DNA of 64,000 nt from Candidatus Thorarchaeota archaeon (GCA_020348985.1 CP070761.1:1521249-1585248); one strand, 5' to 3'. Numbered from the stretch's first letter, positions 34,548-51,490 are shown. The notes: a model not told the origin generated them from the letters alone. A program made the numbers and translations.

Positions 34548-34594
34548 TGAACAATGATAAGAAAGGTCCCAACATACATGTTCAATCTTGAACA
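34548..34594 (-). promoter_or_regulatory. 47-bp regulon element, copy A (before aminotransferase-M28A-deacylase unit)
   Basis: Minus strand: TGTTCA AGAT TGAACA TGTA TGTTGG GACCTTTCTTATCAT TGTTCA. Confidence 0.8.
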
Positions 34595-34744
34595 CGCGAT
34601 GATTGGGACATTCCTCGAAATCGAGTTTTGTGTTGGCTGAGTCAGTCATATCATTGCTCCATTCGTCCAAGGCGGCTCCTTCATTGAAACCCGTACCACA
34701 GAAGACATGTCTATGAGACCTGCCTGAAGGAAGCGCGTGTCTAT

Positions 34745-34791
34745 TGTTCAGCGTTGAACATGTATGTTGGGACCCTTCATATCATTGTTCA
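34745..34791 (+). promoter_or_regulatory. 47-bp regulon element, copy B (before M28 paralog B)
   Basis: TGTTCA GCGT TGAACA TGTA TGTTGG GACCCTTCATATCAT TGTTCA; 42/47 identical to copy A, inverted. Confidence 0.8.
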
Positions 34792-34848
34792 CACCCTGTT
34801 GGATTTGCTCTACAGATCACGCGTTGAATTCTGAGGCAATGGTCGGCT

Positions 34849-36657
34849 TTGGAGATTGGTCTGATGAATGTTGAGAAGACTTCGATTGACGAAATCCGCA
34901 AAACGGTCGAATATCTCTGCGACCTCGGTCAGAAGGTTGCTGGCACTGAACCTGAAGTTCAGGCCGCTAATTATCTGCACGAGCGTTTGAGGGAATTTGG
35001 GTTTACACATGTAGAGATGCAGTCATTCGATGTTCATGGTTGGTATCCTCTTTCCTCCTCTGTAAGAATCACTCAACCAATCCAAAAGGAGATTGAATCT
35101 GCTCTGTTCCCACACTGCAAGTCTGAGGAAGTAGAGGGACGTCTTGTGGCTTTCAAGAAGGATGCTGATCCCACATTGTCTCGAAAAGGACTCATTGCCT
35201 ACTCGGAGTGGGGGCCAGATCCATACCTCAGCCCAAGAAGGACTTACTACCATGCAGTGAGACAAGGATATGACGGTCTCATTGTTGCTGCTCCTGATAA
35301 GGGTGACTTTCTCAAGGTTGTTGTACTTGCGATTGGAGGGCTGCTTGAGATACCCGTAGTCTGTATCACAAAAGAAGAAGGTGATTCTCTTTCATCTCTC
35401 ATTGAATCGGAAGAAGTCTCTGTGAACATCAAGACAGAAATCGAGACTTCAGACCAATCGCAGTCCTACAATGTAATGGCAACCCTGGAGGGTGATGGAA
35501 CAGCTGAGCATGAGGTTATAGTGGGTGCACACTACGACTCCTGGTTCCAGGGAGCAGGCGACAATTGCGCTCCTGCTGCCACAGTTCTTGAATTGGCCCG
35601 GCTATTTGGCAGACAGGCTCAGGCAGGAAGACCTCCTAGGAGAACAATCAGGTTTCTATTCTACGGCGCCGAAGAGAGCGGCACGAATGATTTCTACTTC
35701 TGGCTTAATGGGTCAAAGGCGTTTGTCAAAAGCAACCCAGAAATAGTTGCGAGGACTGCTGCTGTTCTCAGCTTGGACTCAACAGGATACACCAGCCCTG
35801 CTAAGGATTACATATACGCCACAGCCGATGTCTTTGAGTTCGCCAAATCCATTCAAGTTGAGCTTGAGCCGACTCTTGAGTTCCAGTACTTAGACCCTCC
35901 AAGTTATGGTAGCGATCATTGGTTCTTTGAACTATCGGGAATCCCTACGATCTATGGCGTGGCATTTCCAAGCCCCCTCTATCACACGCAAAAGGATGAC
36001 CCTGACCACCTTGATTTTCATGCAGTGCACTACTATGCCGAATACATGAAAGAGGCATTGTCATATCTATCTGAAGTTGAACTGCTTCCTATTGACATCT
36101 TCTTACCGTTAAAGAGGTTCGAGCAAATCTTCAAGAAGTATCAGAAGCTGGACGAGAATCCGTTTGACTTCAGTCCAATCCTGGCCAAATTGAGGGTTCT
36201 GATGAAACAGGAATCGAGTACAAGGAGACTTCTCAAAGCTGCATCCAAATCAAGTAATCCTGATACCATCTCGGAACTCAACCAGTTCCTGCTCCGGACA
36301 GCCAACAAGTACAATCAGACTATCGGCTGGATAACACGTCCTCACGAGACCTATGCTTCTAACTACTTGTGCCGACTGGAGATGATAGAAGATATCATCC
36401 ATCTCACAAACTCGGTCAAGAACCTACGCAATATACCCATCTCCAATTTCATGTCAGAAAGAGCAGCACTTTACGATAGCCAATCTGACAATGCTTACAA
36501 CTGGATCCGTATTCACGAGCCTCTTGCGAGAATAGAAGAAGAATGCACTAGGATTCGAAGGGAGATAGAAGAAGAGCTGAAGATGCTCTCATCGATGATT
36601 GACAGCATTTCTGAAGACATTGCAGGATTGACTGAAGAACAGGTATCTAGTCACTGA
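34849..36657 (+). CDS. M28 metallopeptidase with PA domain, paralog B
   Basis: GAHYD, GAGDN, AEE, SLD, YGSDHWFFE, YHTQKDD; co-linear with paralog A; alternative start ATG 34864. Confidence 0.85.
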   Translation: MEIGLMNVEKTSIDEIRKTVEYLCDLGQKVAGTEPEVQAANYLHERLREFGFTHVEMQSFDVHGWYPLSSSVRITQPIQKEIESALFPHCKSEEVEGRLVAFKKDADPTLSRKGLIAYSEWGPDPYLSPRRTYYHAVRQGYDGLIVAAPDKGDFLKVVVLAIGGLLEIPVVCITKEEGDSLSSLIESEEVSVNIKTEIETSDQSQSYNVMATLEGDGTAEHEVIVGAHYDSWFQGAGDNCAPAATVLELARLFGRQAQAGRPPRRTIRFLFYGAEESGTNDFYFWLNGSKAFVKSNPEIVARTAAVLSLDSTGYTSPAKDYIYATADVFEFAKSIQVELEPTLEFQYLDPPSYGSDHWFFELSGIPTIYGVAFPSPLYHTQKDDPDHLDFHAVHYYAEYMKEALSYLSEVELLPIDIFLPLKRFEQIFKKYQKLDENPFDFSPILAKLRVLMKQESSTRRLLKAASKSSNPDTISELNQFLLRTANKYNQTIGWITRPHETYASNYLCRLEMIEDIIHLTNSVKNLRNIPISNFMSERAALYDSQSDNAYNWIRIHEPLARIEEECTRIRREIEEELKMLSSMIDSISEDIAGLTEEQVSSH

Positions 36658-36677
36658 GAATGAACAATCGAAAGGAA

Positions 36678-36724
36678 TGTTCATTCGTGTACACTGTTGT
36701 TGGGACTCTTATTATGGGTGTTCA
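36678..36724 (+). promoter_or_regulatory. 47-bp regulon element, copy C (before C-N hydrolase)
   Basis: TGTTCA TTCG TGTACA CTGT TGTTGG GACTCTTATTATGGG TGTTCA; extra TGAACA at 36661. Confidence 0.78.
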
Positions 36725-36776
36725 TTCGCGATAAATCATGTAGGACTCGAACTCAGTAACTACAGATTTATGGTAG

Positions 36777-37679
36777 GTGAATCCAAGAATGGAAAGACGT
36801 CTGGGAGTAGCGGGACTCCAGCTTGAGAAAGATCCGTTTGATAGTGACATCAACTTCAAGAAACTGGAGTACATAACTCGGAAGGTCAAGTCTACATTTC
36901 CTTGGGTTGATTTGGTCTTTACTGGAGAACTATACCTCCAGCAATATGGAAGCAGCGATTGGAAAGAGTTTGCTCAACCAATCCCGAATGACATGACAGA
37001 CAGACTGTCTGAAATTGCTCGAGACAACGAGTGCTGGTTTGTACCAGGTTCTTTTTTGGAGAAGGAGAGTGACAAGATATTCAATACCGCACTCGTCTAT
37101 GATCCAAATGGAGACATAGTAGCCAAGTATAGAAAGCTCTATCCTTGGATGCCTTTTGAGGACACAAGTTATGGCACTAGCTTTGTTACATTCGACATTC
37201 CAGGTGTAACGAGGATTGGGATTGTCATATGCTATGATTTGTGGTTTCCTGAGGTTTTCAGGACACTAGCCTGGATGGGTGCCGAGGTAATATTGCAGCC
37301 ATCCGCTACCTATACGCCAGACCGCGCAGCGGAGCTCGTTTTGACTCCAGCTCAGGCAATCATGCATCAATGCTATGTTCTAAACTCGAACGTAATCAGT
37401 GCCATGGGGGGAGGTCTATCTATCTTTGCGGACCCCGAAGGCCGAATCCTACAACAAGTTGGCACACATGAGGAGATTATGACAGAGGTCATCGACTTGG
37501 ATAGGGTTGATTGGATTCGTCAGAATGGATCGTTTGGGATAACTCCCGTGTGGAAGAGCCTAAGAGATTCTCCACTCAGAATGAAGTATCCAGTTTACGA
37601 ACGCTTTGAAGAAGGTGCGATACTCAAGAAGCTAGGGGAAATGAAGGTGCAGAAAAGCATCCGTGAATGGACGGACTAG
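36777..37679 (+). CDS. Carbon-nitrogen hydrolase (nitrilase/amidase superfamily)
   Basis: Catalytic E-K-C triad: FTGEL, YRKLYPW, ICYDLWFPE. Confidence 0.9.
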   Translation: MNPRMERRLGVAGLQLEKDPFDSDINFKKLEYITRKVKSTFPWVDLVFTGELYLQQYGSSDWKEFAQPIPNDMTDRLSEIARDNECWFVPGSFLEKESDKIFNTALVYDPNGDIVAKYRKLYPWMPFEDTSYGTSFVTFDIPGVTRIGIVICYDLWFPEVFRTLAWMGAEVILQPSATYTPDRAAELVLTPAQAIMHQCYVLNSNVISAMGGGLSIFADPEGRILQQVGTHEEIMTEVIDLDRVDWIRQNGSFGITPVWKSLRDSPLRMKYPVYERFEEGAILKKLGEMKVQKSIREWTD

Positions 37680-38707
37680 ATATCATGAGAAACCCCACTC
37701 AGCAATTCTCTACACCTCTTGGAGTATTGTTCACATTGATTCTAATTCTAATGATTCTTGTATTTCCGCAGCCCAGCACAGGTCAATCTGACCAGAGTGA
37801 CTTGACTGGTATTCAGGTGGCGTTGTATACAGGGGGTCCAACAAGTGAATCCAGCCGCGAATCTCTTTCCAGAATGTTCTCATGGATGAACGCAAGTGTC
37901 ACTGTTCTTTCAGGAAGCGCGATAAGGGAAGGTGAACTCGAGAATTTTGATCTAGTTGTCATTCCTGGAGGATATGCACCTGACTTTATAGACGACATAG
38001 GTGCACGAGGGCTTGACAAGATCAGAGATTTCACTAGTAATGGAGGATCTTTCATCGGAGTATGTGCAGGTGCATACTTCGCTTCAGATTACATAATATG
38101 GCAAGGTATACCGACCGAGTATCGACTAGACCTGTTTGATGGTGCTGCTGTTGGTGCCATTGATCAAATCGCCCCTTGGCCAAACTTCCAGATGTGTACA
38201 ATAAGCATCAACCGCAATTCAATTCGGATTGACCTCTCTTCAGAACCGGCTAACCACACGATCATGTATTTCGGGGGCCCTTATTTCCTGCCAAGTGACC
38301 CCAGTGAAATCGAGATTCTGGCAACTTATGATATCAATGATGAAGCAGCCATGATATCTTTCGAGTATGGTCAAGGTAGAGTGTTTCTATCAGGTCCTCA
38401 TCCTGAATGGGAAGAAGATTCAGACCGAGACAATGCTAGTTGGCCTGATGATTTTGACGACAATGGCTCTGAGTGGAACCTAATGCTTAGCGTGTCACTC
38501 TGGCTAACAGAGAATGTGAACAAACCAAGCATTACCGAATTTCAACTGCCACACCTAGTTGGAGTGGCTTTCTTGGTCGTGGGAGCCATCGGCACTGTCG
38601 CCATATTCATACATGTGTTGAGGAATCGTGTCGACTATAGGAATAAATTCTATCAAAGAGGTCCAGAAACGGCAGATTTGCTGATGTTCACCTTTGTCCA
38701 CTCATGA
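37667..38707 (+). CDS. Exported, membrane-anchored class I glutamine amidotransferase-like (BPL_N-type) hydrolase
   Basis: Signal-like N-terminus, VIPGG, GVCAGAY nucleophile elbow, GPHPE, C-terminal TM; likely start ATG 37685. Confidence 0.75.
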   Translation: MDGLDIMRNPTQQFSTPLGVLFTLILILMILVFPQPSTGQSDQSDLTGIQVALYTGGPTSESSRESLSRMFSWMNASVTVLSGSAIREGELENFDLVVIPGGYAPDFIDDIGARGLDKIRDFTSNGGSFIGVCAGAYFASDYIIWQGIPTEYRLDLFDGAAVGAIDQIAPWPNFQMCTISINRNSIRIDLSSEPANHTIMYFGGPYFLPSDPSEIEILATYDINDEAAMISFEYGQGRVFLSGPHPEWEEDSDRDNASWPDDFDDNGSEWNLMLSVSLWLTENVNKPSITEFQLPHLVGVAFLVVGAIGTVAIFIHVLRNRVDYRNKFYQRGPETADLLMFTFVHS

Positions 38708-38741
38708 ACAAAGATGTTGGTCGCATTTTAATCGTTGTACA
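38695..38741 (+). promoter_or_regulatory. 47-bp regulon element, copy D (before ABC transporter)
   Basis: TGTCCA CTCA TGAACA AAGA TGTTGG TCGCATTTTAATCGT TGTACA; extra in-phase TGTTCA at 38685. Confidence 0.72.
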
Positions 38742-38771: not shown

Positions 38772-40715
38772 GTGATACAAGTGAGAAGACCGAATAACAT
38801 CATCCCGTTCCTTCTCATTGGTCTCTTCTTGGTGTCTATGGTTGCATTTGCGCCTGAAGCCTTTGCGCAAGACGACGGCGAGGACGCCGACGTCAGCATT
38901 GTCGTAGGTATGTTCGAGCAACCGGACTTCTTGGGACCAATGATGGCAGGCACCATAGCCGCCTGGGAGTTTCTCAACTGGATGTATGACCCCCTAGTCC
39001 GCTGGGGAGACGACTGGACTATAAAACCAGGACTGGCTGAGAGCTGGGAATGGGCTGACAACGGTACGCAATTGACATTGCATCTTGTGCAGAATGCAAC
39101 ATGGCATGATGGCACTCCCTTCACTTCAGCTGACGTCAACTTCACACTCTTTACTTGGACCTGGCTAGGTTGGTGGGTTGCGCAAACTCCGCGCATCGAC
39201 CACAGGAATATCAAGACCCCTGATGACCACACAGTCATTCTTAATTTTGTTGAGAGTGGCTATGAGAACATCTATGCGTGGTCTCCGGTGTCTCCATTCT
39301 TCTACTATCGTGAGAGCTACGACGGGACTCCCGTGGAGGTTAACCAGGAGTGTTTCCTCACAGGTCTGACATATGTCCCAATCATACCCAAGCATGAATG
39401 GGATCCCCTCATGTGGCATCACCCTGTTTGGGGACTGGAAGGTTCTGGATATGGTGTTACTCTAGAGAATGGCACCTGGGTATACTATGGATACTGGGAC
39501 TATCTCAATTGGGATGGAATCTCTTGGGGCACAATTCTACCTCCATATAACAGATCTGATATCGGAACTGGTCCATTCATCCTGAAGGAATACGAGGTGG
39601 GCGAATACGCGTATTTCGAGGGTAATGATGACTATCACTGGGGTGCACCTAATATCGACAACTTGACCGTCCTATTCTACACCTCAATCGAAACCATGAC
39701 ACAGGCCGTCAAGGCGGGTGAAATTGATTTCTGTGAGACCACCGCCAATTTCCTTGAGACTGGAGAATTTGGCCCTGAAGTGACTGTCAACGAGCAAAGC
39801 TCACTAGGCTGGGAAGCCTTGTTGATCAATCAGGATTGGATATACGCCAATACTAGTGATGCGTTTGCATTGAGGGAACCTGCAGTCAAGGTGGCAATCA
39901 ATCAAGCAGTCAACAAGTCGAACATAGCCAACATCGCTTATCTCGGACATGCCGTGCCTGCGGACTCTGTGATTCACAGTAAGCTGTATAAATGGTTCAA
40001 TGATGAGCTTGTGACACGCGATGTTGGAATCAGCGAGGCAGAAGCCACTCTCGAGGCTGATGGATGGACTCTGAACACTGAAGGAGTCTATGAAAAGACG
40101 CTAAACGGATCTGTGAAGACACTTGAGTTTACTCTCAAATTCATCACAGGCTCTCCGATTGATCTTAGCATAGCACAGCTAATTGAGGCTAACCTCGAAG
40201 ATGCCGGCTTTGACATAACGCTTCAGGCATTGGACGTCTCTACCTTCACAGCAGACCTATTCGCGTACTCCTTTGACCTAGCGATCTCGTTCTGGTCTCA
40301 AATCGGAGATCCGAACAGCATGGCACAATACATGACTTCAACCAGCTGGATCAACCCGACTGGACTTAACATCCCGAGAGTCGATGAAATCTTCTATGAG
40401 CAGCAGCTCGCTACGGACCTCTTCGAAAGACAGGATCTCATTAATGAGATGCAGCAACTTGTCTATGATGAAGCCAGCATTTGTGTCCTTGTTGAATATG
40501 ATGACATTGAACTCTACAGAAATGACCGATTTGTGTTCACACACACAGATTGGTTGAGCGGCATCCTGTCCATGTGGAACTGGGAATCCTGGCTTGGAGC
40601 CGAGCAAGTAGCACCGCCATCATTTCCAATTTCGATGGAGCTGGCAATTATCGCTGGGGCAGGAGTCATCGTTGTAGTGGTGCTCTTCGTGGTTTGGAGG
40701 TCGAAGAAGGGATAG
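38772..40715 (+). CDS. ABC transporter substrate-binding protein, family 5 (peptide/nickel type)
   Basis: Signal peptide, YDPLV, PGLAESWE, WHDGTPFTSADV, IGTGPF, C-terminal TM anchor. Confidence 0.92.
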   Translation: MIQVRRPNNIIPFLLIGLFLVSMVAFAPEAFAQDDGEDADVSIVVGMFEQPDFLGPMMAGTIAAWEFLNWMYDPLVRWGDDWTIKPGLAESWEWADNGTQLTLHLVQNATWHDGTPFTSADVNFTLFTWTWLGWWVAQTPRIDHRNIKTPDDHTVILNFVESGYENIYAWSPVSPFFYYRESYDGTPVEVNQECFLTGLTYVPIIPKHEWDPLMWHHPVWGLEGSGYGVTLENGTWVYYGYWDYLNWDGISWGTILPPYNRSDIGTGPFILKEYEVGEYAYFEGNDDYHWGAPNIDNLTVLFYTSIETMTQAVKAGEIDFCETTANFLETGEFGPEVTVNEQSSLGWEALLINQDWIYANTSDAFALREPAVKVAINQAVNKSNIANIAYLGHAVPADSVIHSKLYKWFNDELVTRDVGISEAEATLEADGWTLNTEGVYEKTLNGSVKTLEFTLKFITGSPIDLSIAQLIEANLEDAGFDITLQALDVSTFTADLFAYSFDLAISFWSQIGDPNSMAQYMTSTSWINPTGLNIPRVDEIFYEQQLATDLFERQDLINEMQQLVYDEASICVLVEYDDIELYRNDRFVFTHTDWLSGILSMWNWESWLGAEQVAPPSFPISMELAIIAGAGVIVVVVLFVVWRSKKG

Positions 40716-40813: not shown

Positions 40814-43546
40814 ATGGGATTGAGAGGAACTGTCGTCAAGAGAATAGTCCAAGCTATCATCACAATCTGGATTGCATTGTCGATTGACTTCATATTCTTC
40901 CATATGCTCCCTGGTAATCCTGCATCACTTCTAGCAAGAAATCCGAACATTGCTGAGATAGTGCAAGAGAGAGTCATTCAGGAGTTTGGGCTCGACCAGC
41001 CCATGCACATTCAATATGGTCTGTTCCTCGTAAACTTCATCTCTGGAAATCTTGGTGTTTCATTTCATTTCCTCGTTCCTGTGCAGGACGTAATATACTC
41101 TAGACTGATGAACACGGTACTCCTAATCTTGCCAGCCACAATTCTGTCCATAATAACTGGCATATGGATAGGCAAGAAAGCGGCGTGGAAAAGAGGAGAG
41201 AAACAGGACGTCGTCGGACTTTTCATATCGCTAGTGACCTATTCGATTCCATCATTTTGGCTGTCAATGTTCTTCATTATGATATTCTCGGTCAACCTAC
41301 ACCTGTTTCCATTGACACCATGGAACCCTGCCATAGGGCCCCAAGACACTTTGGGATTCTGGCTGAACTTGTTCTCTCACCTGGTCTTGCCGTGGGCAGT
41401 GCTGTGGATCGCTCTGATTGGTGTGTTTGCACTAATAATGAGAAATGCTCTCTTGGACGTACTGAGCGAGGACTACATGGTAACGGCGAAAGCTAAAGGA
41501 AGAACCGAGAAAGAACAGCTTGACAAGGAAGCTGTCCCAAATGCAATGATCCCAGTTGCGACCATAATTGCTCTCAATATAGGATTCTCAGTTGCTGGCG
41601 CCCTTCAGGTTGAGGTTGTTTTCTCCTACCCTGGAATTGGAAGACTTCTTTGGGACGGCATACTTTACAGGGACTATCCACTGCTGCAGGCTACTTTCTT
41701 CATGATTACGGTGGTAATTGTCGTTGCCAACCTAATAGCGGATTTCCTGTACTATGCCCTAGATCCCAGAATACGAGTAGGATCGGAGGTCGTCATATCA
41801 GAAGTGAAGAATGATTCTACCCTGAGAGGCTTCCTCCAACCTTTACGTCTACTGCTCATCTTTCTCATAATTCTGAATCTTGGAGCGACTATTGCGTATC
41901 CTGCTTTCGTTGGCTTAACCATAGGTCTCAGCGTATTGGCAATTTGTCTGCTGAGGTGGAAGCAGGTTGGGGAGTATATCCTGACACGTCTAAGATCCTA
42001 TTCTCCAGCGCATCTTGGATTCTTGTGGAGGAATTATCGATACAGACTCCTTACTCACCTGTCGCTTCTTGTCCTTTCAGTCAATCTGATGGTTTTCGTT
42101 GCCATTACGATGTCTGGTGTGTACGGTCTTGAGTGGACTCTTTCATGGGGGAGATCGTTCATAGGCATAGGAGGGTTTCCTCCTTCTATTGGTCTTGAAG
42201 GAGCAGCTCACTCAATCATGGTGGGATTATCTTCAATTGCGCATCCAAGCCTCACAATTGCAGCGCTTGCACTTTCTTTGATTGGCGCGATTATGGGGAG
42301 GAGAAGCAAGACAGAAGGGATGCTTAGGCAGTTCATAGCAACTCCAATGGGAAAGTTCGGAACCATGCTTGTTGCATTCTTTGTCGGTCTTGCCATCTAT
42401 GGTGACATACTTGCACCTTATGATCCAGACCAGCAACTCACTGGCCTGCCATACAGGCGGCCAAGCCCCTTGCCTCTTGATCAGCTAGTACTTGTGTCTG
42501 TAGGATTGGGTTTATTATGTCTTGGATTTGCTATCTGGATTATTGCGTACATTAGAAAGAAACCAAATACTCCAAAGCATTTCACCAAATTGCTTGTCAG
42601 CATAGTGATAGCATTCCTGGGGATTCTCTTAGGGTCTTATTCCTACAGCAAAAACCACCTGCCCGGGATTGTGACTTCTATTGCCATCTTTCTTGTCGGC
42701 GTCTTCCTGTTGTTGAAAAATCGTTCCTTTCCAAGGGATTACATCAGTGAACTGAGAGTTTCATATTTGTCATCGATTTCAGAGAGTTTGGTGACTATCG
42801 GTCTCATATCATTCATGTATTCAGCCTTGGTGGTCATAACTGGGAATCCGACCACATACCCAGGCTTTCACATCCTCGGTACAGACCAATTGGGTAGGGA
42901 TGTTTTCAGCCAGATGGTGATTGGAGTGAGAATAACTCTGATTATTGGCTTGGTTGCAACTGTAATCACAATGACCATAGGAACCATGATAGGACTAATT
43001 GCGGGATACTATGGAGGTCTGTCTGATTCGTTTCTCATGAGATTCACAGATGTCTTCTTTGTCATTCCGACCTTGGTGATAATGATCATACTCGCAGCCA
43101 TACTTCCACCCTCAATCTACACACTCATCTTTGTCATCGGAATATTCTCTTGGCCCTCCACAGCAAGAATTGTCCGTGGACAGGTCTTGACCATAAAGGA
43201 ACGCACCTACATTGAACGTGTGCGATCTGTTGGAGGTAGCGATGTCTATATCATGGCTAGACACGTTCTACCAGCCGTTGCCCCGCTTATCGTCGCAAAT
43301 ACAGTGCTTGTCACTGCCTATGCAATCCTTTCGGAGGTCGTCCTGGACTTCTTCGGGTTGGGCGACCCAAACATGATTAGCTGGGGAACAATGCTCTATC
43401 AGGCCTTTGGCGGGGGTGCTATGTCGAGCAATCTATGGTGGCTTGTGTTTCCACCAGGCATAGCAGTAATCGTGCTTCTGATGGGAGTATCAATGATGGG
43501 TTACGCAATGGATGAGATAGCCAATCCAAGACTGAGGAGGAGGTAA
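40814..43546 (+). CDS. Fused DppB/DppC-type ABC permease with extra TM insertions
   Basis: N-half LPGNP, DYMVTAKAKG, RDYPLLQ, LDPRIR; C-half LGTDQLGRD, LMRFTD, NPRLRRR. Confidence 0.9.
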   Translation: MGLRGTVVKRIVQAIITIWIALSIDFIFFHMLPGNPASLLARNPNIAEIVQERVIQEFGLDQPMHIQYGLFLVNFISGNLGVSFHFLVPVQDVIYSRLMNTVLLILPATILSIITGIWIGKKAAWKRGEKQDVVGLFISLVTYSIPSFWLSMFFIMIFSVNLHLFPLTPWNPAIGPQDTLGFWLNLFSHLVLPWAVLWIALIGVFALIMRNALLDVLSEDYMVTAKAKGRTEKEQLDKEAVPNAMIPVATIIALNIGFSVAGALQVEVVFSYPGIGRLLWDGILYRDYPLLQATFFMITVVIVVANLIADFLYYALDPRIRVGSEVVISEVKNDSTLRGFLQPLRLLLIFLIILNLGATIAYPAFVGLTIGLSVLAICLLRWKQVGEYILTRLRSYSPAHLGFLWRNYRYRLLTHLSLLVLSVNLMVFVAITMSGVYGLEWTLSWGRSFIGIGGFPPSIGLEGAAHSIMVGLSSIAHPSLTIAALALSLIGAIMGRRSKTEGMLRQFIATPMGKFGTMLVAFFVGLAIYGDILAPYDPDQQLTGLPYRRPSPLPLDQLVLVSVGLGLLCLGFAIWIIAYIRKKPNTPKHFTKLLVSIVIAFLGILLGSYSYSKNHLPGIVTSIAIFLVGVFLLLKNRSFPRDYISELRVSYLSSISESLVTIGLISFMYSALVVITGNPTTYPGFHILGTDQLGRDVFSQMVIGVRITLIIGLVATVITMTIGTMIGLIAGYYGGLSDSFLMRFTDVFFVIPTLVIMIILAAILPPSIYTLIFVIGIFSWPSTARIVRGQVLTIKERTYIERVRSVGGSDVYIMARHVLPAVAPLIVANTVLVTAYAILSEVVLDFFGLGDPNMISWGTMLYQAFGGGAMSSNLWWLVFPPGIAVIVLLMGVSMMGYAMDEIANPRLRRR

Positions 43547-43551: not shown

Positions 43552-44511
43552 ATGACCGAGGACGTCTTGGAGATAAGAAACCTGTACATTTCGTATCAAA
43601 CTAAGCAAGGAAAAGTTAAGGCTGCCGAAGATGTCAGCTTCAAGATTCGCTGCGGCGACTTCGTTGGTCTTAGTGGGGAGAGTGGATGCGGAAAAACAAC
43701 GACTGCACTGGCGGTTATGCATCTTCTACCAAAAGAAGGGATCGTTGAAGGTGGTGAAATACTCTTCAACGGTAGAAACGTTCTCGAATACAAAGACCAA
43801 GAAGTCCGTGAATACTTGTGGCGCGATGTTTCCATGATCTTTCAAGGTGCCATGAATGCACTTAATCCGGTTCACAAGGTCATCGACCAAATGACAACTG
43901 CCATCCAGATTCACGAGGGTGTGTCTCATGAGGAAGCGAGAGAACGTTCTTTGGAGCTTATAGACTCTGTTGGAATCGATATTGCAAGAGCCGGTGGTTA
44001 CCCTCATGAAATGAGTGGGGGTATGAAACAAAGACTGATGATTGCTCTTGCACTAGTATGCCATCCATCTCTTGTCATAGCAGATGAGCCCACTACCGCA
44101 TTAGACGTAATGGTGCAAGCCCAGATTCTGGAGCTGCTGAAACAACTCAGAAACAGGACCAATCTATCCCTTCTTCTCATCACACATGATTTGTCAGTTA
44201 TTGCTGAAACCTGTGACCACACTATCATTATGTATGCGGGACGAATTGTCGAAATGGGGAGTACTTCGAAGATCTTCAGTGACCCAGAGCATCCCTATAC
44301 AATGAAGCTAATCTCGTCATTCCCAAGTATACTATCAGACAAGGGAATTGACTACATACCAGGAAATCCTCCTGACTTGATCAACCCTCCAAGTGGGTGT
44401 AGGTTCCATCCCAGATGTGATTTCACCATTAATCAATGTAAGGAGAATTCTCCACCGCTAGAAGAACAAGACAATCATCTTGTAGCCTGTTGGAGGAGAA
44501 GTGATATCTAG
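43552..44511 (+). CDS. Peptide ABC transporter ATP-binding subunit (DppD-type)
   Basis: GESGCGKT, MSGGMKQR, DEPTTALD, C-terminal GCRFHPRC. Confidence 0.93.
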   Translation: MTEDVLEIRNLYISYQTKQGKVKAAEDVSFKIRCGDFVGLSGESGCGKTTTALAVMHLLPKEGIVEGGEILFNGRNVLEYKDQEVREYLWRDVSMIFQGAMNALNPVHKVIDQMTTAIQIHEGVSHEEARERSLELIDSVGIDIARAGGYPHEMSGGMKQRLMIALALVCHPSLVIADEPTTALDVMVQAQILELLKQLRNRTNLSLLLITHDLSVIAETCDHTIIMYAGRIVEMGSTSKIFSDPEHPYTMKLISSFPSILSDKGIDYIPGNPPDLINPPSGCRFHPRCDFTINQCKENSPPLEEQDNHLVACWRRSDI

Positions 44512-45524
44512 TGTCAGATGTCATTCTCGAAGCCAAGGACATTAAGAAATACTTCACAGTAAGAAGTGGACTCCTCGCTACTATTCTTCTCAACAGGGAG
44601 CCAACTTACATTAAAGCTGTGGACGGGGTCGACCTCAGTATCCGAAGAGGTGAGGTCTTCGCCATTGCAGGAGAAAGTGGGTGTGGCAAGACTACAATGG
44701 CGAGGTTGATGGTCCAACTGGAGTTACTGACAGACGGCCAGATATTCTTCGAGGGAGAAGAGGTCTCGAAGATGAATCAATCTGAGTTCAAGCCATATCG
44801 GCGAAGAATACAGATGATCTTCCAGGACCCCTATGGGGCACTCAGTAATAACATGACAATCTCAGAAGTGATAGCAGAACCTCTTAGAATACACAAGATA
44901 TACAGTAGCCCTCAAGAAGAGGAAGAGGCTGTCAGGCAGGCAATGGAGGATGTGGGATTAAGACCAGCAGAGGATTTTGTGGACAGGTTGCCGCACGAAT
45001 TGAGTGGAGGTCAGAGACAACGAGTTGCAGTGGCGGCTGCCCTCGTACTAAAACCAGACCTGTTGATTGCAGATGAGCCCGTTTCAATGCTCGATGTCTC
45101 TATGCGTGGTCAGATTCTCAACCTTCTGTTGGAACTGAGAGACAAGAAGGGAATCACGATCGTGATCATAACACACAACCTTGCTGTTGCCAAGCAGATT
45201 TCTGATCGAATTGCAGTTGCGTATCTTGGGAAGATTGTTGAAATAGGTGACACCAGAACGATCATCGAGAATCCTAAGCATGCCTATACAAAGGCTCTAC
45301 TCTCAGTTGTTCCAGTGCCAGAAATGAACGTTGAGAGAGAGCGAATACTCCTTTCGGGCGAAACTCCGAATCCTGTGAATATCCCACCAGGATGCCGCTT
45401 TCACACTAGATGTCCATTCGGGTCGTCTCGTTGTGAAGTTGATGAACCAGAGCTACGTGAACTTCCTGATGGCAGAAGAGTCGCCTGCTATGATGCACAA
45501 GAAGAAGCGATCTGCCATAGCTAG
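44511..45524 (+). CDS. Peptide ABC transporter ATP-binding subunit (DppF-type)
   Basis: GESGCGKT, LSGGQRQR, DEPVSMLD, GCRFHTRC. Confidence 0.93.
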   Translation: MSDVILEAKDIKKYFTVRSGLLATILLNREPTYIKAVDGVDLSIRRGEVFAIAGESGCGKTTMARLMVQLELLTDGQIFFEGEEVSKMNQSEFKPYRRRIQMIFQDPYGALSNNMTISEVIAEPLRIHKIYSSPQEEEEAVRQAMEDVGLRPAEDFVDRLPHELSGGQRQRVAVAAALVLKPDLLIADEPVSMLDVSMRGQILNLLLELRDKKGITIVIITHNLAVAKQISDRIAVAYLGKIVEIGDTRTIIENPKHAYTKALLSVVPVPEMNVERERILLSGETPNPVNIPPGCRFHTRCPFGSSRCEVDEPELRELPDGRRVACYDAQEEAICHS

Positions 45525-46658
45525 CTACTTGCTGGGGTACTTGCGTCCAACCTCTCGCGCTTTCGTGAAATGCAATACTGCCGATGCCACACCCTCTTCC
45601 CTGGATATCTCCTCTATCTTTTCGAGGGCTAGGAGTGATCTGAGTAATTTCATGGAAAGGTCCTTCATAGGAGCCGTCCTACTTCTGATTTGAACACGCA
45701 TCATATCTCCGTCGGCAGAGACATTGGACCATTCCCAAAGCCCTAGTGTTCCAATCACTGAGACTGTGCGGTCTACTAGATTGGAGACACTAGACGTGTC
45801 CTTCTCACCATTGATGACGTCGAGTTGTTGTGCATGCTCTCTGATGCTAACAAGCGTCTTGTCACTAATCGGATCCTCTATCGTGTTGGTGACAAGCCAA
45901 TCTAGAAGAGAAGGACTTAGTGTGACGACACCTCGATGACCTGTCTGTGAAGAAAGCCGCTCTCTTCGGTCTCGCCACAACGTGATGACACGTCTGTCTC
46001 TTTCAATCTTCACCTGATTGTACTCATTCTGGTGGATCCACGTGACACTTATCTTGTTGTCAGCTACGATCTCTACATCAAAAGTGAACCCAGCTTCCTC
46101 CCATCCTGCAATCAGCATTATGACAAGTAGCTCAGGTAGCCCCTGAAACATACCTGTTGTGAGGAGAAGTCTCTTCCTCTCGGATGAACATTCAACTGAC
46201 CTAAGGACTCCAACATCTCTAAGGAAGTTCGCATTGGCAACAAGCGATTCGTAATTGTTCTCCCAGAACTCCTCTGGAATTACACCCACACTCATGAGCA
46301 GCTTGGTTTGCTCAATCCCAATCTTCTTGGCCTCCAATGTTAAGTCTCTAACGGAATGGGTGCCTAGACCGCAGCCAGCGCACAGCGATAATAGATTTGA
46401 GCTGACTAGTATCATGTCAGCGGATTGAATGAGGGAATTGTGTAGGCGTGATGTCTTGATGGCATCGCACTCTTCACAATTGGGGAGATCTCTTCTTGTG
46501 CTGTAATGCTTCACAGCTTCTTCAAGAACATCATTGATGCGTCTCGAGTCACTTGAGAGTTCCTTCAAAAGATTCTTGGTGCTGGCGGAGACTGTAGTAT
46601 GTAGATGCACTCTCGGTTCACGAGACCCATTATAGTCATGTGAGTCCATAACATCCAT
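45525..46658 (-). CDS. Putative transcription regulator: N-terminal ribbon-helix-helix, CxxC, two tandem alpha/beta putative ligand-binding domains
   Basis: RVHLHTTVSASTKNLLKEL...INDVLEEAV RHH pattern; start moved to ATG 46658 (or 46649) because the track's N-terminal extension is occupied by regulon hexamers. Confidence 0.6.
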   Translation of the reverse strand: MDVMDSHDYNGSREPRVHLHTTVSASTKNLLKELSSDSRRINDVLEEAVKHYSTRRDLPNCEECDAIKTSRLHNSLIQSADMILVSSNLLSLCAGCGLGTHSVRDLTLEAKKIGIEQTKLLMSVGVIPEEFWENNYESLVANANFLRDVGVLRSVECSSERKRLLLTTGMFQGLPELLVIMLIAGWEEAGFTFDVEIVADNKISVTWIHQNEYNQVKIERDRRVITLWRDRRERLSSQTGHRGVVTLSPSLLDWLVTNTIEDPISDKTLVSIREHAQQLDVINGEKDTSSVSNLVDRTVSVIGTLGLWEWSNVSADGDMMRVQIRSRTAPMKDLSMKLLRSLLALEKIEEISREEGVASAVLHFTKAREVGRKYPSK

Positions 46659-46797
46659 GAACAAACCCACCGGTTCGTGTTCAAGACATCTATTCCAGTT
46701 ATAGATTCGTGAACATAAGCATTCCGAAGCAGTGAGGTTTGTTGAATCTTTGAACAAGGTCATGACGAAGTGTCTTTCTCATGTGCACCCTTGTTCA
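46658..46797 (-). promoter_or_regulatory. Cluster of regulon hexamers including degenerate 47-bp copy F (46751-46797)
   Basis: Hexamers at 46658, 46678, 46710, 46751, 46782, 46792; minus strand TGAACA-N4-TGCACA-N25-TGTTCA keeps the consensus spacing. Confidence 0.62.
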
Positions 46798-48417
46798 TTC
46801 GTGAAGGTGGTCGCCCATGAGAGTCCCACGAATGAAGAATTTCTCAAATTCACCGTATGAGGCTAATTCTACATATCGAGCAGAATCCGCAATTTCTTCT
46901 GCTATCTCCCTATGAGCTATTGACAACAGCATCTTCTTTGCACCGTCTCCGGCTGCGTTGCCAACTTGAACAACACGATTCGGATCAATGGCGGGCAAGA
47001 GTCCAATGGAGACTGCGCTTTCGGGATTGATGTATGTCCCAAATGCTCCAGCTAGATAGACAGCGTCGATTTCCGTCAATGCAACATCTGCCTCTCTAAT
47101 GAGGATGTGAGTGCCTGCTAGGATTGCGCTCTTGGCAAGTTGGACTTGACGAACATCCTTTTGCGTGAACAATATTCGAGACTCAGAGTCATGCTCCCCC
47201 TTCTCGACAAGGACATAGGACGCCACCGACGGACCTACATGAATGATTCGATTCGACTCCTGCAATCTTCCGTCTTCGTCAAGCAAGCTATGCTTGAGTA
47301 GTTCTGAGACAATATCTACTATTCCCGATCCGCATATTCCTCTGGGTACACCGCCGCCGATTACTTCAATCTCGGCAGGCTGAGAAGGATCATCGATTGT
47401 AACATGTTCAATCGCACCTTCCTGACCTCTCATTCCCTGAGATATCGTAGCCCCTTCGAATGCAGATCCGGCTGCAGCTGAACAGCAAAAGAGCTCACCG
47501 TATTTGGACAACACAATCTCACCATTGGTTCCAATATCAGCACCGAGAACAACATCTTCAGACTGGTCGAGCCTCTGCGAAAGAATGAACGCTACGGTGT
47601 CCCCTCCCACAAATCCAGCGATATTCGGTGAGCAATAGACTTGGGCGGCCGAAACTTGGCCAAGCCCAACAACCTTTGAATCGGCGTTGAATGAATGTTT
47701 CATTGCTGGTTCATATGGGGCAAAGCCTAATGACGAAGTGTCTATTCCCAAGAATAGGTGATGCATTGCTGTGTTACCAACTACGGAGATTCGGCCAACT
47801 GCTTCAGAGGAAACCTGGCCTGCTTCGCATACTTCCTTAATCAGTCCGTCGATCGCTTGAACGACCAAGGACTGAAGACTGGCTGCACCCTCATCATTCT
47901 GTAAGGCATGAGTGATTCTTGTGACTACGTCCTCACCATATTCAATTTGAGGGTTGAGCATAGAAGCGCATCCAATCTGTGCCCCGTCCTTCAAGCCAAG
48001 AAGATAGGCAACAATAGTAGTAGTGCCAAGGTCAATGGCAACGCCATATTCACCGTCGATGGGCGCGTCAATAGCAATCTCATCGGTTGTGATTAGATGT
48101 TCAGCAAGAATCTTACTTCGACCTTCAACACGTGTCAGAATCGCTCTACAATGGGCCTTTGCTGTGTGTTCACAAGCAAGACGAACTCCGCGTCTGATAT
48201 CTTCGCCTTTGAGGTGAAGCGAGTCGATCTTGGTCGGCGATGGTTTGGGCTTAAGTATGATTCTACACTTGCCACATGTTCCTTTGCCTCCGCACTCAGC
48301 CGGTATATGCAAACCCATTCTTCTTGCTGCCTCTAGAAAAGAAGTATTGGAGTCCAAAAGGATTCGTAGCCCTGAAGGCTCGAATACTACTAACCACCTC
48401 TCTTCCAAGAATGTCAC
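46795..48417 (-). CDS. Reductive activator of corrinoid proteins (RACo; 2Fe-2S + ASKHA/DUF4445)
   Basis: CGGKGTCGKC...RLAC, DLGTTT, GNTAMHHL, DIGTNGE, GICGSG, QLAKSAI, LAGAFG, GNAAG. Confidence 0.92.
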   Translation of the reverse strand: MTFLEERWLVVFEPSGLRILLDSNTSFLEAARRMGLHIPAECGGKGTCGKCRIILKPKPSPTKIDSLHLKGEDIRRGVRLACEHTAKAHCRAILTRVEGRSKILAEHLITTDEIAIDAPIDGEYGVAIDLGTTTIVAYLLGLKDGAQIGCASMLNPQIEYGEDVVTRITHALQNDEGAASLQSLVVQAIDGLIKEVCEAGQVSSEAVGRISVVGNTAMHHLFLGIDTSSLGFAPYEPAMKHSFNADSKVVGLGQVSAAQVYCSPNIAGFVGGDTVAFILSQRLDQSEDVVLGADIGTNGEIVLSKYGELFCCSAAAGSAFEGATISQGMRGQEGAIEHVTIDDPSQPAEIEVIGGGVPRGICGSGIVDIVSELLKHSLLDEDGRLQESNRIIHVGPSVASYVLVEKGEHDSESRILFTQKDVRQVQLAKSAILAGTHILIREADVALTEIDAVYLAGAFGTYINPESAVSIGLLPAIDPNRVVQVGNAAGDGAKKMLLSIAHREIAEEIADSARYVELASYGEFEKFFIRGTLMGDHLHE

Positions 48418-49323
48418 CTAACTTATCCTGTAACGAGGATGTGTCTTGTCAATGGGGGTTCGAGTTTCAAGCAAAATACCCGATAGCGCTACATCAATCA
48501 TTGCAATAGACGGGTAGACAATTGGTGCATCTTGTACCGGGCCGTACAGGACAAAGTCAGCCCCTAAGACAACAGGCATCAGATTGGATCCGACGAAAGC
48601 AGGCTTTTTCGCTTCATCTCCAAACTTCGGAACCAACCCCCTCCAAGTACTAACAGCATTGTGTGCGCCGCAGCCAACAGGGTATCCTTGTTTTTCTTTG
48701 ATAGTTTGTAGTGCTTTACAAGCTAGGCCTAGAGTGAGTAGGTCTGCAACACCTGTGTCGATGAGCAAGTTTGTGAAACCAGAATTCTTTGCTTTTTTTA
48801 TTAGGGAATCAGCCAATTCAACTCTCTTCGTGGCTGATGCCATGGCTTCTGACGAGAAAGTGAGAAGCACTACATTCTTGAGGCCAGTATCCTGGAACCG
48901 GGAATAGACTTCGCCTGAAGATTCAGGAGTCAGGGAATTCAAAACCACTCTATGAAGAAGACCAGCATCGCTTGCAGCATTCACACCGGCAAGATTGACT
49001 GCTGTTTGGTCTGATCCATCAATCATGAGTGGAGAATCTGTCATGTCGGCTAGCAATCGGATGTATCTGTCGGCTGCCTCTGGAGATATCGCAACGACAT
49101 CTAACATGCTGGGCAATCCGGTCTTTTCAGAAGTCTCCTCCAAATTCTGGAGGACATCCTCTGTTCCCGCTACATCAATTCTGCCCGATTTGGGATCTAA
49201 AACGAGTCTGTCACCTGTGTAGAAAATTGACCCTACTAGGACTGTGGGATTGACACCAGGTTGTCCACCTATCTTTACTCCACCGATTTCAAGTATCTTT
49301 TGTTCGACTTGATATTCGAACAA
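48418..49323 (-). CDS. mtrH: MtrH-like methylcorrinoid:H4MPT methyltransferase (soluble, no other Mtr subunits)
   Basis: IGGVKIGGQPG..PTVLVGSIFY, GCGAHNA, GADFVLYGP; TTG 49323 preceded by GGAGGTGA. Confidence 0.85.
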   Translation of the reverse strand: MFEYQVEQKILEIGGVKIGGQPGVNPTVLVGSIFYTGDRLVLDPKSGRIDVAGTEDVLQNLEETSEKTGLPSMLDVVAISPEAADRYIRLLADMTDSPLMIDGSDQTAVNLAGVNAASDAGLLHRVVLNSLTPESSGEVYSRFQDTGLKNVVLLTFSSEAMASATKRVELADSLIKKAKNSGFTNLLIDTGVADLLTLGLACKALQTIKEKQGYPVGCGAHNAVSTWRGLVPKFGDEAKKPAFVGSNLMPVVLGADFVLYGPVQDAPIVYPSIAMIDVALSGILLETRTPIDKTHPRYRIS

Positions 49324-49372
49324 GGGTCTCACCTCCAATAATGAGCGTCGACGCGACCCCACGTTAGATTGA

Positions 49373-50752
49373 TTAATAGAGGAATCTCACACCGAGGTCC
49401 GCAACCTCTTGCTTCACTCTTTCATATATCTCGTAGCACTCCTTTGAAGGTCTACCGGTCACAGGATCACAGCACTCTTGGAACGTTTTGCCCCTTGGTG
49501 GGTCACCAACCCTGTCAGCAAATCTCGGGATGATTCTCTTTACAATCTCGTTTGCATCATCCCTTGTGATACCAGCAGACGCGTAGGCAACCTCCGAGGC
49601 GAACATTGGCTCAATTGGTGTCAGATAATCTGTGTACTTCCCTCTGGCAACGCCTCCGGTCTCAATTGACCCTCCTGAAGATATTCCGCCAATGAATTCT
49701 GCAGCAAACTCGTAAAGCACCATCTCGGTACAGGGGCCCGCAGCAGTGTAGTTGTAATATAGCGCTGGCACCTGTGTATTCCTTGACACAGCCTGCAGGT
49801 ATTGGCTGGCCACCCAGATTAGCTCTGGTGTGGAACTTGAGGTATACTTGAGGTGGATCGGGAAGCACAGTGTCCAGGATGCGCCAAGGGTCATTATTGC
49901 CATTATGTGAAAAGCCGTGGACGTGATTGCTGTTCCTTCTGCTCCCCCTGCAAAGCCACCATAGATGGGACCATGAATCCCTGCGATTGGAACATTCAGT
50001 GATTGTAGAAGTGCTGCACGATTCAGCAAATCAAAATCTGTCTTTAGCTCAGCAAGCTGAGCAATCATGTATCCGTCTGTCTTCCGTAGTCCAAAATCGG
50101 GATGCAAACCTGAAGCAAGGGCGATAGCGGACTCTGCGGTCCCAATAGCATTCATGATGGGTAGTCCAGGTCGCCCAGCTCTTCTCAAAGCCTCCCGCCC
50201 CAGAACCACAGTTCGTATACTACCCTCGATTTCGAGTGGTGATTTCGCACGAATGCTCATATCGCCGACATTAGCCAGGCAGGGAGTGGTAATCGCGTTT
50301 GCAATCGGTATCAGTTCTGCATAGTTTTGAACAAGTTTCATGAACACGTTCTCACTAGACACAGTTACCCCCCCGGCCCCTGCGAAAATCCATGGTTTCT
50401 CCTTTGACTCTGGCTTCCTTGGTAGCAGAGTTCGTTGTTCCATACCCTCGCCCAGAAGTGCATGGTCAAAGGATGTGTTGATGCTGTCACGAACCTCCTT
50501 CTCTGTGAACGAGATTACTCGTTCAGTGTCCTTGTTGAATACTCCGATCTCGACGATAAGGTCAAAAGCTGCTTTGAATACTGAATCTGCTAGCCCGTCA
50601 TCAGAGGAAATCACGATGTTAGGATCGTACGTGACATCATATTCTTTAACAAGCTCTTGGACTCGCGGAGCAAAGATTCGCAAATCGTAGTCCTTTTCCA
50701 AGCAGGGCTTTCCTTCAAGAGACCTTCGAGTAATCTCCAGTATGTTCAGCAT
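49373..50752 (-). CDS. mtmB: Monomethylamine:corrinoid methyltransferase (MtmB) family homolog, non-pyrrolysine
   Basis: DDGLADSVFKAA, DTERVI, SPLE, AGRPG, ELK, GGFAGGAEG, AGPCTEM, F.ECCD; 459 aa uninterrupted, no in-frame TAG. Confidence 0.85.
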   Translation of the reverse strand: MLNILEITRRSLEGKPCLEKDYDLRIFAPRVQELVKEYDVTYDPNIVISSDDGLADSVFKAAFDLIVEIGVFNKDTERVISFTEKEVRDSINTSFDHALLGEGMEQRTLLPRKPESKEKPWIFAGAGGVTVSSENVFMKLVQNYAELIPIANAITTPCLANVGDMSIRAKSPLEIEGSIRTVVLGREALRRAGRPGLPIMNAIGTAESAIALASGLHPDFGLRKTDGYMIAQLAELKTDFDLLNRAALLQSLNVPIAGIHGPIYGGFAGGAEGTAITSTAFHIMAIMTLGASWTLCFPIHLKYTSSSTPELIWVASQYLQAVSRNTQVPALYYNYTAAGPCTEMVLYEFAAEFIGGISSGGSIETGGVARGKYTDYLTPIEPMFASEVAYASAGITRDDANEIVKRIIPRFADRVGDPPRGKTFQECCDPVTGRPSKECYEIYERVKQEVADLGVRFLY

Positions 50753-50756
50753 TCAC

Positions 50757-51404
50757 TCATCCCTTCCTTTCCTCAATCAGTCTAATTGCTTCACGCACAG
50801 CCTCCGGCGCAGTCTCGGCAAAGCCATCAGCACCAATTTCATCAGCCCATTCCTGGTTAGTTGGGCCGCCGCCAACCATGACAATGAACCTGTCGCGTTT
50901 TCCAGTCTCCTGCAGATAGTCGATGACATCCTTTTGGCCGCCAAGAGTAGAAGTCATGAGAGCTGAGATTGCGATTATGTCGGCATCGATTTTCTCCGCC
51001 TCTTCCACGAACCTTGATGTTGCAACATCGCAGCCGAGGTCGGTCACCGCAAAACCATTAGCAACAAGCATGGCCTTGAGGATGTTCTTCCCAATCTCGT
51101 GAATATCACCACGAACCGTTCCAACCACGACTCTTCCTGCTACAGGTACTTCTTCTTTTGGCATCTTTGGTAGAATCACATCCAAAGCCGCCATCATAGC
51201 TTCTCCGGAAAGCATGAGATTTGTGAGGAATATCTCCATTCGCTCGAACTGCTCACCAACATGTTTGGCCCCTTCGGAAACACCCTTCTCAAGAGCCACC
51301 AAAGGACTGACGCCAGCTTCAAGAGCAGCTTCTGCGTATTGGGTGACTTTCTCAGCATCTCCTTCAATAATGGCTTCTTTCAGTTTGGCAATGTCTTCTG
51401 ACAT
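50757..51404 (-). CDS. Methyltransferase cognate corrinoid protein (MtmC/MttC family)
   Basis: GTVRGDIHEIGKN (DxHxxG), SALMTST, VGGGP; start moved to ATG 51404 because the longer ORF overlaps regulon copy E. Confidence 0.92.
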   Translation of the reverse strand: MSEDIAKLKEAIIEGDAEKVTQYAEAALEAGVSPLVALEKGVSEGAKHVGEQFERMEIFLTNLMLSGEAMMAALDVILPKMPKEEVPVAGRVVVGTVRGDIHEIGKNILKAMLVANGFAVTDLGCDVATSRFVEEAEKIDADIIAISALMTSTLGGQKDVIDYLQETGKRDRFIVMVGGGPTNQEWADEIGADGFAETAPEAVREAIRLIEERKG

Positions 51405-51443
51405 GTTCCTGACATCCATCGAGATAATGAGTAGACATCTGGA

Positions 51444-51490
51444 TGAACAGACACAAAAGCACTCCCAACACCTGTGAACACTCTTGAACA
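51444..51490 (-). promoter_or_regulatory. 47-bp regulon element, copy E (before methyltransferase operon)
   Basis: Minus strand: TGTTCA AGAG TGTTCA CAGG TGTTGG GAGTGCTTTTGTGTC TGTTCA. Confidence 0.78.

Follow-up and report, generated by a model that had tools for sequence, protein, structure and literature searches.

A 47-bp repeat with the features of an operator-promoter, and a candidate ribbon-helix-helix regulator, in a catabolic island of a Thorarchaeon

There are five representatives of a 47-bp repeat in the stretch of DNA analysed here (the window), which comprises 64,000 nucleotides from a genome of Candidatus Thorarchaeota archaeon (GCA_020348985.1, CP070761.1:1521249-1585248). We consider this repeat as a candidate operator-promoter element. 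An earlier note, made from the sequence alone, had given it as TGT(T/C)CA-N4-TGWWCA-N4-TGTTGG-N15-TGTWCA and had claimed that the five copies are the only ones in the window and that each is oriented toward a nearby start codon. All five copies indeed match this pattern with 0 mismatches, no further copy appears in the window even when 3 mismatches are allowed, and every copy faces a start codon located 40-74 nt downstream (all distances start from the element's last base). The 10-bp phasing described for the first three hexamers is also correct, as these begin at motif positions 1, 11 and 21. The fourth begins at position 42, so the hexamer-to-hexamer spacings within the element are 10, 10 and 21 bp. 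The genes located under the five elements extend from 30023 to 51404 and constitute a predicted regulon, in an island that also includes the gene for a candidate regulator (45525-46658, minus strand).

Copy 1 (34548-34594, minus strand) lies 60 nt from a TTG start codon at 34488 and heads a unit on the same strand that encodes a class III aminotransferase (34488-33184), an M28 peptidase (33174-31402) and an M20 peptidase (31324-30023). Copy 2 (34745-34791, plus strand) is followed after 74 nt by the ATG at 34865 of a gene for a second M28 peptidase (34865-36657, plus strand). These two copies are almost identical, spacers included, and both head paralogous M28-containing units. Copy 3 (36678-36724, plus strand) is separated by 66 nt from the ATG at 36790, where a unit begins that encodes an amidase-like CN-hydrolase (36790-37679) and a BPL_N/class-I amidotransferase-like protein (37667-38707), both on the plus strand. 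Copy 4 (38695-38741, plus strand) has an additional in-phase TGTTCA at 38685, 10 bp upstream of the element, and thus spans 38685-38741 when this hexamer is included. It is located 41 nt away from the GTG at 38782 and heads the genes of an Opp/Dpp-type ABC importer, all on the plus strand, namely SBP5 (38782-40715), a fused OppBC (40814-43546), OppD (43552-44511) and OppF (44511-45524). Copy 5 (51444-51490, minus strand) lies 40 nt from the ATG at 51404 and heads a minus-strand unit for a corrinoid protein (51404-50757), an MtmB homolog free of pyrrolysine (Pyl) (50752-49373), an MtrH-like protein (49362-48418) and a RACo-type activase (48417-46795). The start of the corrinoid gene at 51491 in the list of open reading frames (ORFs) is an artefact, and its true ATG is at 51404. 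Each element sits just past the stop codon of the preceding gene, and a Shine-Dalgarno sequence of the GGAG, GGTG or AGGA type is found before each of the five starts.

A single ORF of 910 amino acids with two BPD_transp_1 domains joins the OppB and OppC permeases, and this fusion is kept in the islands of relatives. The alignment of the MtmB homolog with MtmB1 of M. barkeri (1L2Q; E 1e-67) runs from end to end. The homolog has no in-frame TAG, and the Pyl position (GMGV-X-GP) reads GLPI-M-NA. The first function of an MtmB lacking Pyl, and the only characterised one, is that of MtqB (tetramethylammonium/choline), which was published in 2026 (PMC13044021). The presence of peptidases, an amidase, an aminotransferase and an Opp importer suggests a peptide-like or N-methylated amine substrate. 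Besides the 45525-46658 protein, no product of a conserved island gene has a DNA-binding fold. The island contains no recombinase genes, and its intergenic gaps are too small for a further gene. Approximately 3 kb outside the predicted regulon, a 436-amino-acid protein with a C-terminal helix-turn-helix (HTH) of the TrmB type is encoded at 25496-26806 (plus strand), adjoining a gene for a MinD/ParA-type ATPase (26796-27548) and lacking the element.

The 47-bp pattern has 0 matches in 100 dinucleotide-preserving shuffles of the window. A scan of the whole genome, which is present as one contig of 3,157,342 bp including 13,100 N, reveals no sixth copy with up to 4 mismatches, and the three sites that appear at 5 mismatches are unrelated. 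Rather than occurring at a similar frequency throughout the genome, which the earlier note had named as the outcome that would count against its proposal, the element is confined to one locus and is specific to that locus in this genome. There are eight TGWWCA-N4-TGWWCA pairs genome-wide, and four of these lie inside the 47-bp elements. The other four were considered as additional members of the regulon and rejected, as they are at chance level, with two found within ORFs and two isolated. There is also an intergenic cluster of hexamers at approximately 2106725-2106790 of the contig (G000:C1; L014 2225-2290), which reads TGATCA-N7-TGTTCA-N6-TGAACA-N4-TGTTTC-N13-TGTTCA. This cluster ends 4 nt before the ATG of a 261-amino-acid ORF that has no Pfam match and adjoins a gene for an ArsR-like HTH protein. 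Its spacing is unlike that of the 47-bp element, and it may be a chance occurrence or a degenerate relative of the element.

Homologs of the 45525-46658 protein come from organisms named 'Candidatus Thorarchaeota archaeon' or 'Promethearchaeota archaeon'. Since the host is therefore an Asgard archaeon of the class Thorarchaeia, archaeal promoter rules apply, with a TATA box and B recognition element (BRE) and with TATA-binding protein (TBP) and transcription factor B (TFB). A sigma-70 or sigma-54 promoter was considered by eye and dismissed, as the spacings are wrong for either type and the host is archaeal. A T/A-rich box occupies motif positions 32-40 and reads TTCTTATCA, TTCATATCA, (C)TTATTATG, TTTTAATCG and CTTTTGTGT in the five copies. 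Upstream of the 21 tRNA genes of this genome are boxes of the TTTATATCA, TTTAAATCA, TTAATATCA and CTTATATCG types, located some 33-46 nt before the mature 5' end. By a TATA position weight matrix built from these tRNA promoters, which was seeded by eye and is thus supportive rather than rigorous, the box of the element ranks in the top 0.5% of genomic 9-mers in four of the five copies. The best box is at motif position 32 in three of these four copies and at position 34 in copy 5. This supports a match between the T/A-rich box and the host's own TATA consensus.

The earlier note had proposed an operator that overlaps BRE and TATA. The TATA part of this proposal holds up, but the tRNA promoters of this genome yield no clear BRE consensus by which the other part could be borne out. 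GG(G)AC immediately precedes the TATA box, in overlap with hexamer 3, whereas the tRNA TATA boxes are preceded by an A-rich stretch. With TATA at positions 32-40, the start site is expected near motif position 62, which puts hexamer 4 between the TATA box and the transcription start site (TSS) and hexamer 3 at the place of the BRE. Start sites are predicted some 20-25 nt past the T-rich box, at 34533 (minus strand), 34806 (plus), 36739 (plus), 38756 (plus) and 51429 (minus), with a tolerance of +/-4 nt. The sequencing runs in which this stretch is represented are DNA runs of sediment metagenomes, and no RNA run was listed. Rfam and tRNA scans of the window gave no matches, and the reading of the 47-bp repeat as an RNA element was rejected.

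The distribution of the element was surveyed in 87 Thorarchaeia genomes with a relaxed form of the pattern, allowing at most 1 mismatch and using the reversed pattern as a control. There are 58 occurrences in 21 of the 87 genomes, and the reversed control occurs in none (0/87). The family of the 45525-46658 protein is detected in 19 of the genomes, and element and protein are found together in 18. There are three genomes with the element only, which are 62-87% complete and include one (G023) where the island contig ends inside the SBP gene. In the single genome with the protein only, the match is a 59-residue fragment. Neither is found in the remaining 65 genomes, which include both genomes of the same genus. 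The island is therefore patchy, being found in 6 of the 17 genera, and the protein goes along with the element. The same-genus relatives are too divergent to set the borders of the island (AFOR is 62% identical, and the left flank was not found). Among 40 sampled relatives, three carry orthologs of the 45525-46658 protein at 43-47% identity. In relatives, the same element precedes the same genes, namely the SBP5 operon, the aminotransferase operon, M28 and the corrinoid-MtmB operon, and the order and orientation of the units differ.

In an in-register alignment of 19 copies from five genera, information reaches approximately 2 bits at the T-rich box, at the TG..CA positions of hexamers 1, 2 and 4, and in hexamer 3 at TGTT, the only part of that hexamer that is conserved. 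Spacers and flanks carry 0-0.3 bits. This invariance of the hexamers amid spacers and flanks that have diverged to nearly 0 bits indicates selection on the hexamers themselves, as expected of protein-contact positions. Hexamer 2 is TGAACA in eight copies, TGTTCA in seven and TGTACA in four, and TGATCA is found in 0 of 19 copies even though the pattern permitted it. Moreover, hexamer 2 flips between orthologous promoters, and the lack of compensation for this flipping excludes an RNA hairpin. The variants of hexamer 2 fit a two-fold symmetric reader of TGT/ACA half-sites, with one dimer per hexamer.

Two arrangements in relatives differ from the one described here. In L012 (8527-8617) and L007 (630-707), the gene for the BPL_N/amidotransferase-like protein is a separate unit, whose start is found approximately 44 nt past the first hexamer of the divergent aminotransferase element. 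The two divergent promoters of these relatives seem to share the palindromic pair of hexamers 1 and 2. In the single-contig relative G082, the island is found in two pieces located 1.38 Mb apart (L021 and L022, at ~2.09 Mb and ~0.71 Mb), with elements kept in each, and at the break a truncated OppF (residues 92-328) directly adjoins the promoter of the corrinoid gene. This suggests a rearrangement, perhaps a recent one, or a misassembly, and the split carries little weight as an argument from unlinked loci.

The earlier note had named the 45525-46658 protein as the one to try in binding assays. This protein (P0002) is annotated with 377 amino acids starting at 46658, and a longer form of the ORF (45525-46763) would have 412. 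It consists of a ribbon-helix-helix (RHH)-like N-terminal domain, a P-x-C-x-x-C motif and two alpha/beta domains. Its family has approximately 30 members, which are all from Thorarchaeota, all hypothetical and all without a Pfam domain. Conservation within the family is highest at the N-terminus, R-V-H-L-H-T-T-(I/V)-S...L..L.G..GR(I)ND(V)LE.AV.YY, where R16, H18, H20 and T22 make up an invariant face of the strand. The P-x-C-x-x-C motif (residues 59-64 of P0002) comes immediately after the RHH-like domain and is invariant in 27 of 27 family members. In a dimer or tetramer, this CxxC could form a metal, Fe-S or redox-sensing site. The distant homologs P0036 and P0042 are found in unrelated neighbourhoods that lack methyltransferases, which indicates that the wider family is not tied to the methyltransferase pathway. 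There is one in-frame stop within the matched range of the orthologs in G082 and G090 (TAG) and in G051 (TGA); these stops probably lie at the N-terminal edge, ahead of the true start.

When the model of residues 8-66 alone is compared with the PDB, nearly all of the matches are RHH proteins (14 of 21 Foldseek rows and >40 of 50 VIA rows), with TM 0.54-0.69 and Z 3-4.5. The RHH proteins matched are CopA(SO), Arc, CopG-DNA, ORF56, ParD, PutA RHH-DNA, TacA, MazE, NikR, ArtA, AmrZ, SvtR, omega, ParG and FitA, and the structural neighbours of the Atlas model are the Arc, CopG and VapB clusters. The N-terminal strand is unstructured in the monomer model, as expected if this strand pairs only in a dimer. 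A complex prediction for two copies of residues 10-75 reaches a score of 0.41 against a mark of 0.42, with controls at 0.00, and bears neither way.

For the whole protein, the model has a pLDDT of 76 and Foldseek against the PDB gives no match at E 0.001 or better. Sequence matches in the PDB to allophycocyanin were discarded as chance. Residues ~80-215, and likewise 237-376, match H-NOX, Bet3/TRAPP and BcsD (Z 6.3-7.4), and the same domains match HNOB, DUF2378 and a cluster of HTH-fused regulators at TM 0.40-0.48; all of these matches are within the range of common arrangements. At E up to 10, Pfam finds neither V4R nor HNOB in the sequence. Residues 289-367 form a C-terminal ferredoxin-like unit (Z 9-10), which is a common fold. 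These models make an H-NOX/V4R-type sensor of small molecules plausible.

The region upstream of the regulator gene (46658-46797, minus strand) is a candidate autoregulatory operator. It contains five TGWWCA hexamers, at 46658, 46678, 46710, 46751 and 46792, with spacings of 20, 32, 41 and 41 bp that are all near multiples of 10.3 bp, and the last hexamer overlaps the ATG (46658-46656). Orthologs in G005 (L007) and G019 (L009) are preceded by TGTTCA-N25-TGAACA-N14/15-TGTTCATG, and G022 (L010) is similar. Phased hexamers (20/21, 31/32, 41 and 51 bp) are thus located upstream of the regulator gene in four genomes from four genera. A phasing score calculated over all pairs of promoter-region hexamers is 0.75 at a 10.3-bp period, compared with a null of 0 +/- 0.15; this score mostly restates the defining spacing of the element, and the distances in the regulator promoter are its sole independent part. 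The regulator-promoter hexamers are a candidate signature of autoregulation. Together, the RHH-type fold of the models, the co-occurrence with the element and the phased hexamers at its own promoter support the 45525-46658 protein, which the earlier note had named, as a candidate DNA binder.

These observations cause us to regard it as probable that the 47-bp element is at once a core promoter and an operator for dimers of the RHH-type protein, and that it commands one locus-specific regulon. What is observed here is the pattern, its uniqueness, position and conservation, its resemblance to TATA, its co-occurrence with the protein and the RHH-like fold of that protein; within this reading we infer binding, stoichiometry, the ligand and the sign of control. 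The TATA box (positions 32-40, such as TTCATATCA) would be bracketed by four quasi-palindromic sites with the consensus TGTWCA, all on one face of the helix. Three of these would lie upstream of TATA at 10-bp phasing, with the third one degenerate (TGTT only) and abutting the place of the BRE, and the fourth would lie 2 bp downstream of TATA, between the box and the predicted start site. Each hexamer would most likely be bound by one dimer of the island-encoded protein. The large C-terminal domains may tie these dimers together and are probably sensors of a small ligand. Along with the promoter of the regulator gene itself, the five units would then form a single regulon that responds to a ligand related to the imported substrate. 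Its role would be the import, by the Opp-type ABC transporter, and the breakdown of a peptide-like or N-methylated amine substrate by M28 and M20 peptidases, amidase, aminotransferase and demethylation through the Pyl-free MtmB, corrinoid protein, MtrH and RACo. Perhaps, in the absence of ligand, the array clamps TATA from both sides and blocks TBP, TFB and RNA polymerase, and the ligand releases the array.

Several points weigh against this reading and must be set beside the evidence above. Co-occurrence cannot single out the 45525-46658 protein as the binder, as every gene of the island co-occurs with the element. The TATA matrix was seeded by eye, the box of copy 3 reaches only the 96.7th percentile and the best box of copy 5 is shifted by 2 bp. 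Sequence models do not recognise the protein as RHH: Pfam and NCBIfam give no match even at E = 10, and a scan of the genome with PF01402 finds six other RHH genes and not this one. A local hhalign comparison with those six genes is in the right register but is weak (P 0.005, probability 7%), and a global one failed. The RHH assignment is therefore based on fold rather than on a match to a curated sequence model. The RHH fold matches have low absolute scores (TM 0.54-0.71, Z 3-4.5), as is expected for a domain of ~50 residues, and it is the near-exclusive RHH composition of the matches that persuades. The likeness of the putative sensor domains to H-NOX or V4R is weak (Z 6-7, TM 0.4-0.5). Finally, the presence of hexamers on both sides of TATA does not decide between repression and activation.

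A serious alternative, though we judge it less likely, is positive control, in which the RHH protein on hexamers 1-3, upstream of a weak BRE/TATA, recruits TBP and TFB together with its ligand and hexamer 4 merely stabilises the complex. Archaeal activators such as Ptr2, and TrmBL1 at gluconeogenic promoters, act upstream of TATA, and three of the four sites are located in this usual place. The G/C-rich GGGAC stretch before the box, unlike the A-rich stretch of the tRNA promoters, is also in keeping with activation, as is the BPL_N-like gene of relatives, for which the sites are purely upstream. However, hexamer 4 is conserved to the same 2 bits as hexamers 1 and 2 and is found between TATA and the predicted start, a position typical of repressors. 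A hexamer also overlaps the start codon at the regulator's own promoter, and the weakness of the BRE is an impression only, as no BRE consensus was derived. Because hexamer 4 and the start-codon hexamer are in repressor-type positions, repression relieved by ligand is slightly preferred over activation, by inference alone.

It is improbable that the hexamers serve a different transcription factor, one encoded elsewhere or in an unrecognised part of the island, with the 45525-46658 protein in another role, such as sensor or chaperone for the methyltransferase system. This would accommodate the failure of sequence profiles to call the protein RHH, a co-occurrence that any island gene would exhibit and the three genomes that have the element and no detected homolog, but those three are the fragmentary ones. 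Since the element is found nowhere else in the genome, a dedicated local factor is expected. The 45525-46658 gene is the only conserved island gene outside enzymatic and transport families, and its product is modelled with an RHH-type fold. The same hexamers recur at its own promoter in four genera, and the intergenic gaps leave no space for another gene. Least likely by far is that the copies descend from one duplicated promoter, or are recombination or mobile-element sites that shuffle cassettes without a dedicated regulator, or form an RNA leader; the near-identity of copies 1 and 2 before paralogous units and the shuffled unit order with an element at every junction would agree with duplication or recombination, but the spacers have diverged while the hexamers have not, the element always faces a start codon, no recombinase is present, and an RNA leader is contradicted by the uncompensated change of hexamer 2 from inverted to direct and by the Rfam result.

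If the RHH protein does bind the element as an array of dimers, there are precedents for parts of this arrangement. In systems of the omega, CopG, Arc and MetJ type, one dimer binds each short repeat, several repeats are adjacent (direct or inverted in omega) and lie on one face of the DNA (CopG, Arc), the sites overlap the promoter, and autoregulation is common. The predicted fold is shared with omega (of pSM19035), CopG and Arc, whose structures are among the fold matches of the N-terminus. In contrast, omega, CopG, Arc and MetJ are small, come from bacteria or plasmids and have no sensor domain. Their repeats are contiguous and 7-8 bp long, whereas here 6-bp sites are phased at 10 bp with a 21-bp jump over TATA. 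Their promoters are of the sigma-70 type and the one here is archaeal (TATA/TBP). NikR, whose chains are also among the fold matches, similarly has an RHH domain fused to a regulatory domain. NikR senses nickel, has an ACT-like domain and only two half-sites, and bridges sites that are helical turns apart by oligomerising through its C-terminal part. Unlike NikR, the protein described here has a CxxC motif and ~300 residues of two alpha/beta domains with a weak likeness to H-NOX/V4R, and there are 4-5 sites in each promoter.

The logic of the regulon is like that of TrmB/TrmBL1 and the TGM motif of Thermococcales, a likeness drawn from established knowledge. There, a motif at a fixed position relative to BRE/TATA controls catabolic enzymes together with an ABC importer, whose genes neighbour that of the regulator. 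However, TrmB is a winged HTH protein whereas the candidate here is RHH-like, and TGM is a single palindrome (TATCAC-N5-GTGATA) instead of four phased hexamers that bracket TATA. In Methanosarcina, Msr regulators composed of an HTH and a V4R domain reportedly control corrinoid methyltransferase genes, as described by Bose et al. in 2009. The resemblance lies in a local regulator with a V4R-type domain, here only weakly V4R-like and without a Pfam V4R match, that accompanies methylotrophic corrinoid methyltransferase genes; the DNA-binding domain is HTH there and RHH-like here. The archaeal and viral RHH proteins SvtR (SIRV1), ORF56 (pRN1) and CdrS act at archaeal TATA-type promoters (PMC5569661, PMC7439475). 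The structures of SvtR and ORF56 are among the fold matches of the N-terminal domain. However, SvtR, ORF56 and CdrS have ~50-60 residues and lack sensor domains or a comparable multi-operon catabolic regulon.

Systems in which a local regulator acts through repeated operators at catabolic and transport operons are familiar. The predicted system here differs from the cooperative RHH repressors, NikR and TrmB/TGM in its operator geometry, in which three sites phased at 10 bp are followed by a 21-bp jump over TATA and a fourth site, along with the archaeal promoter and a protein architecture without a family assignment. In the full-text literature searched, we came across no description of any operator or regulon from Asgard archaea. 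Tentatively, and with somewhat less than even confidence, we suggest that a hitherto undescribed, Thorarchaeia-only regulator with an RHH domain, a CxxC motif and tandem H-NOX/V4R-like domains forms an array of dimers along one DNA face, straddles TATA and gates TBP and TFB by ligand or redox state, and that it would represent the first sequence-defined pair of transcription factor and operator from Asgard archaea.

As a test system, the locus is compact, fully defined and strongly conserved. Its parts are the 47-bp element and one candidate protein, which should be amenable to expression in E. coli, and it offers predictions for the start sites as well as a clear read-out. Asgard archaea are the closest prokaryotic relatives of eukaryotes, and this system would show how an RHH factor of bacterial type meets a eukaryote-like TBP/TFB machinery. 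If the proposed role of the protein is true, its effector would point to the substrate of the Pyl-free MtmB demethylation pathway.

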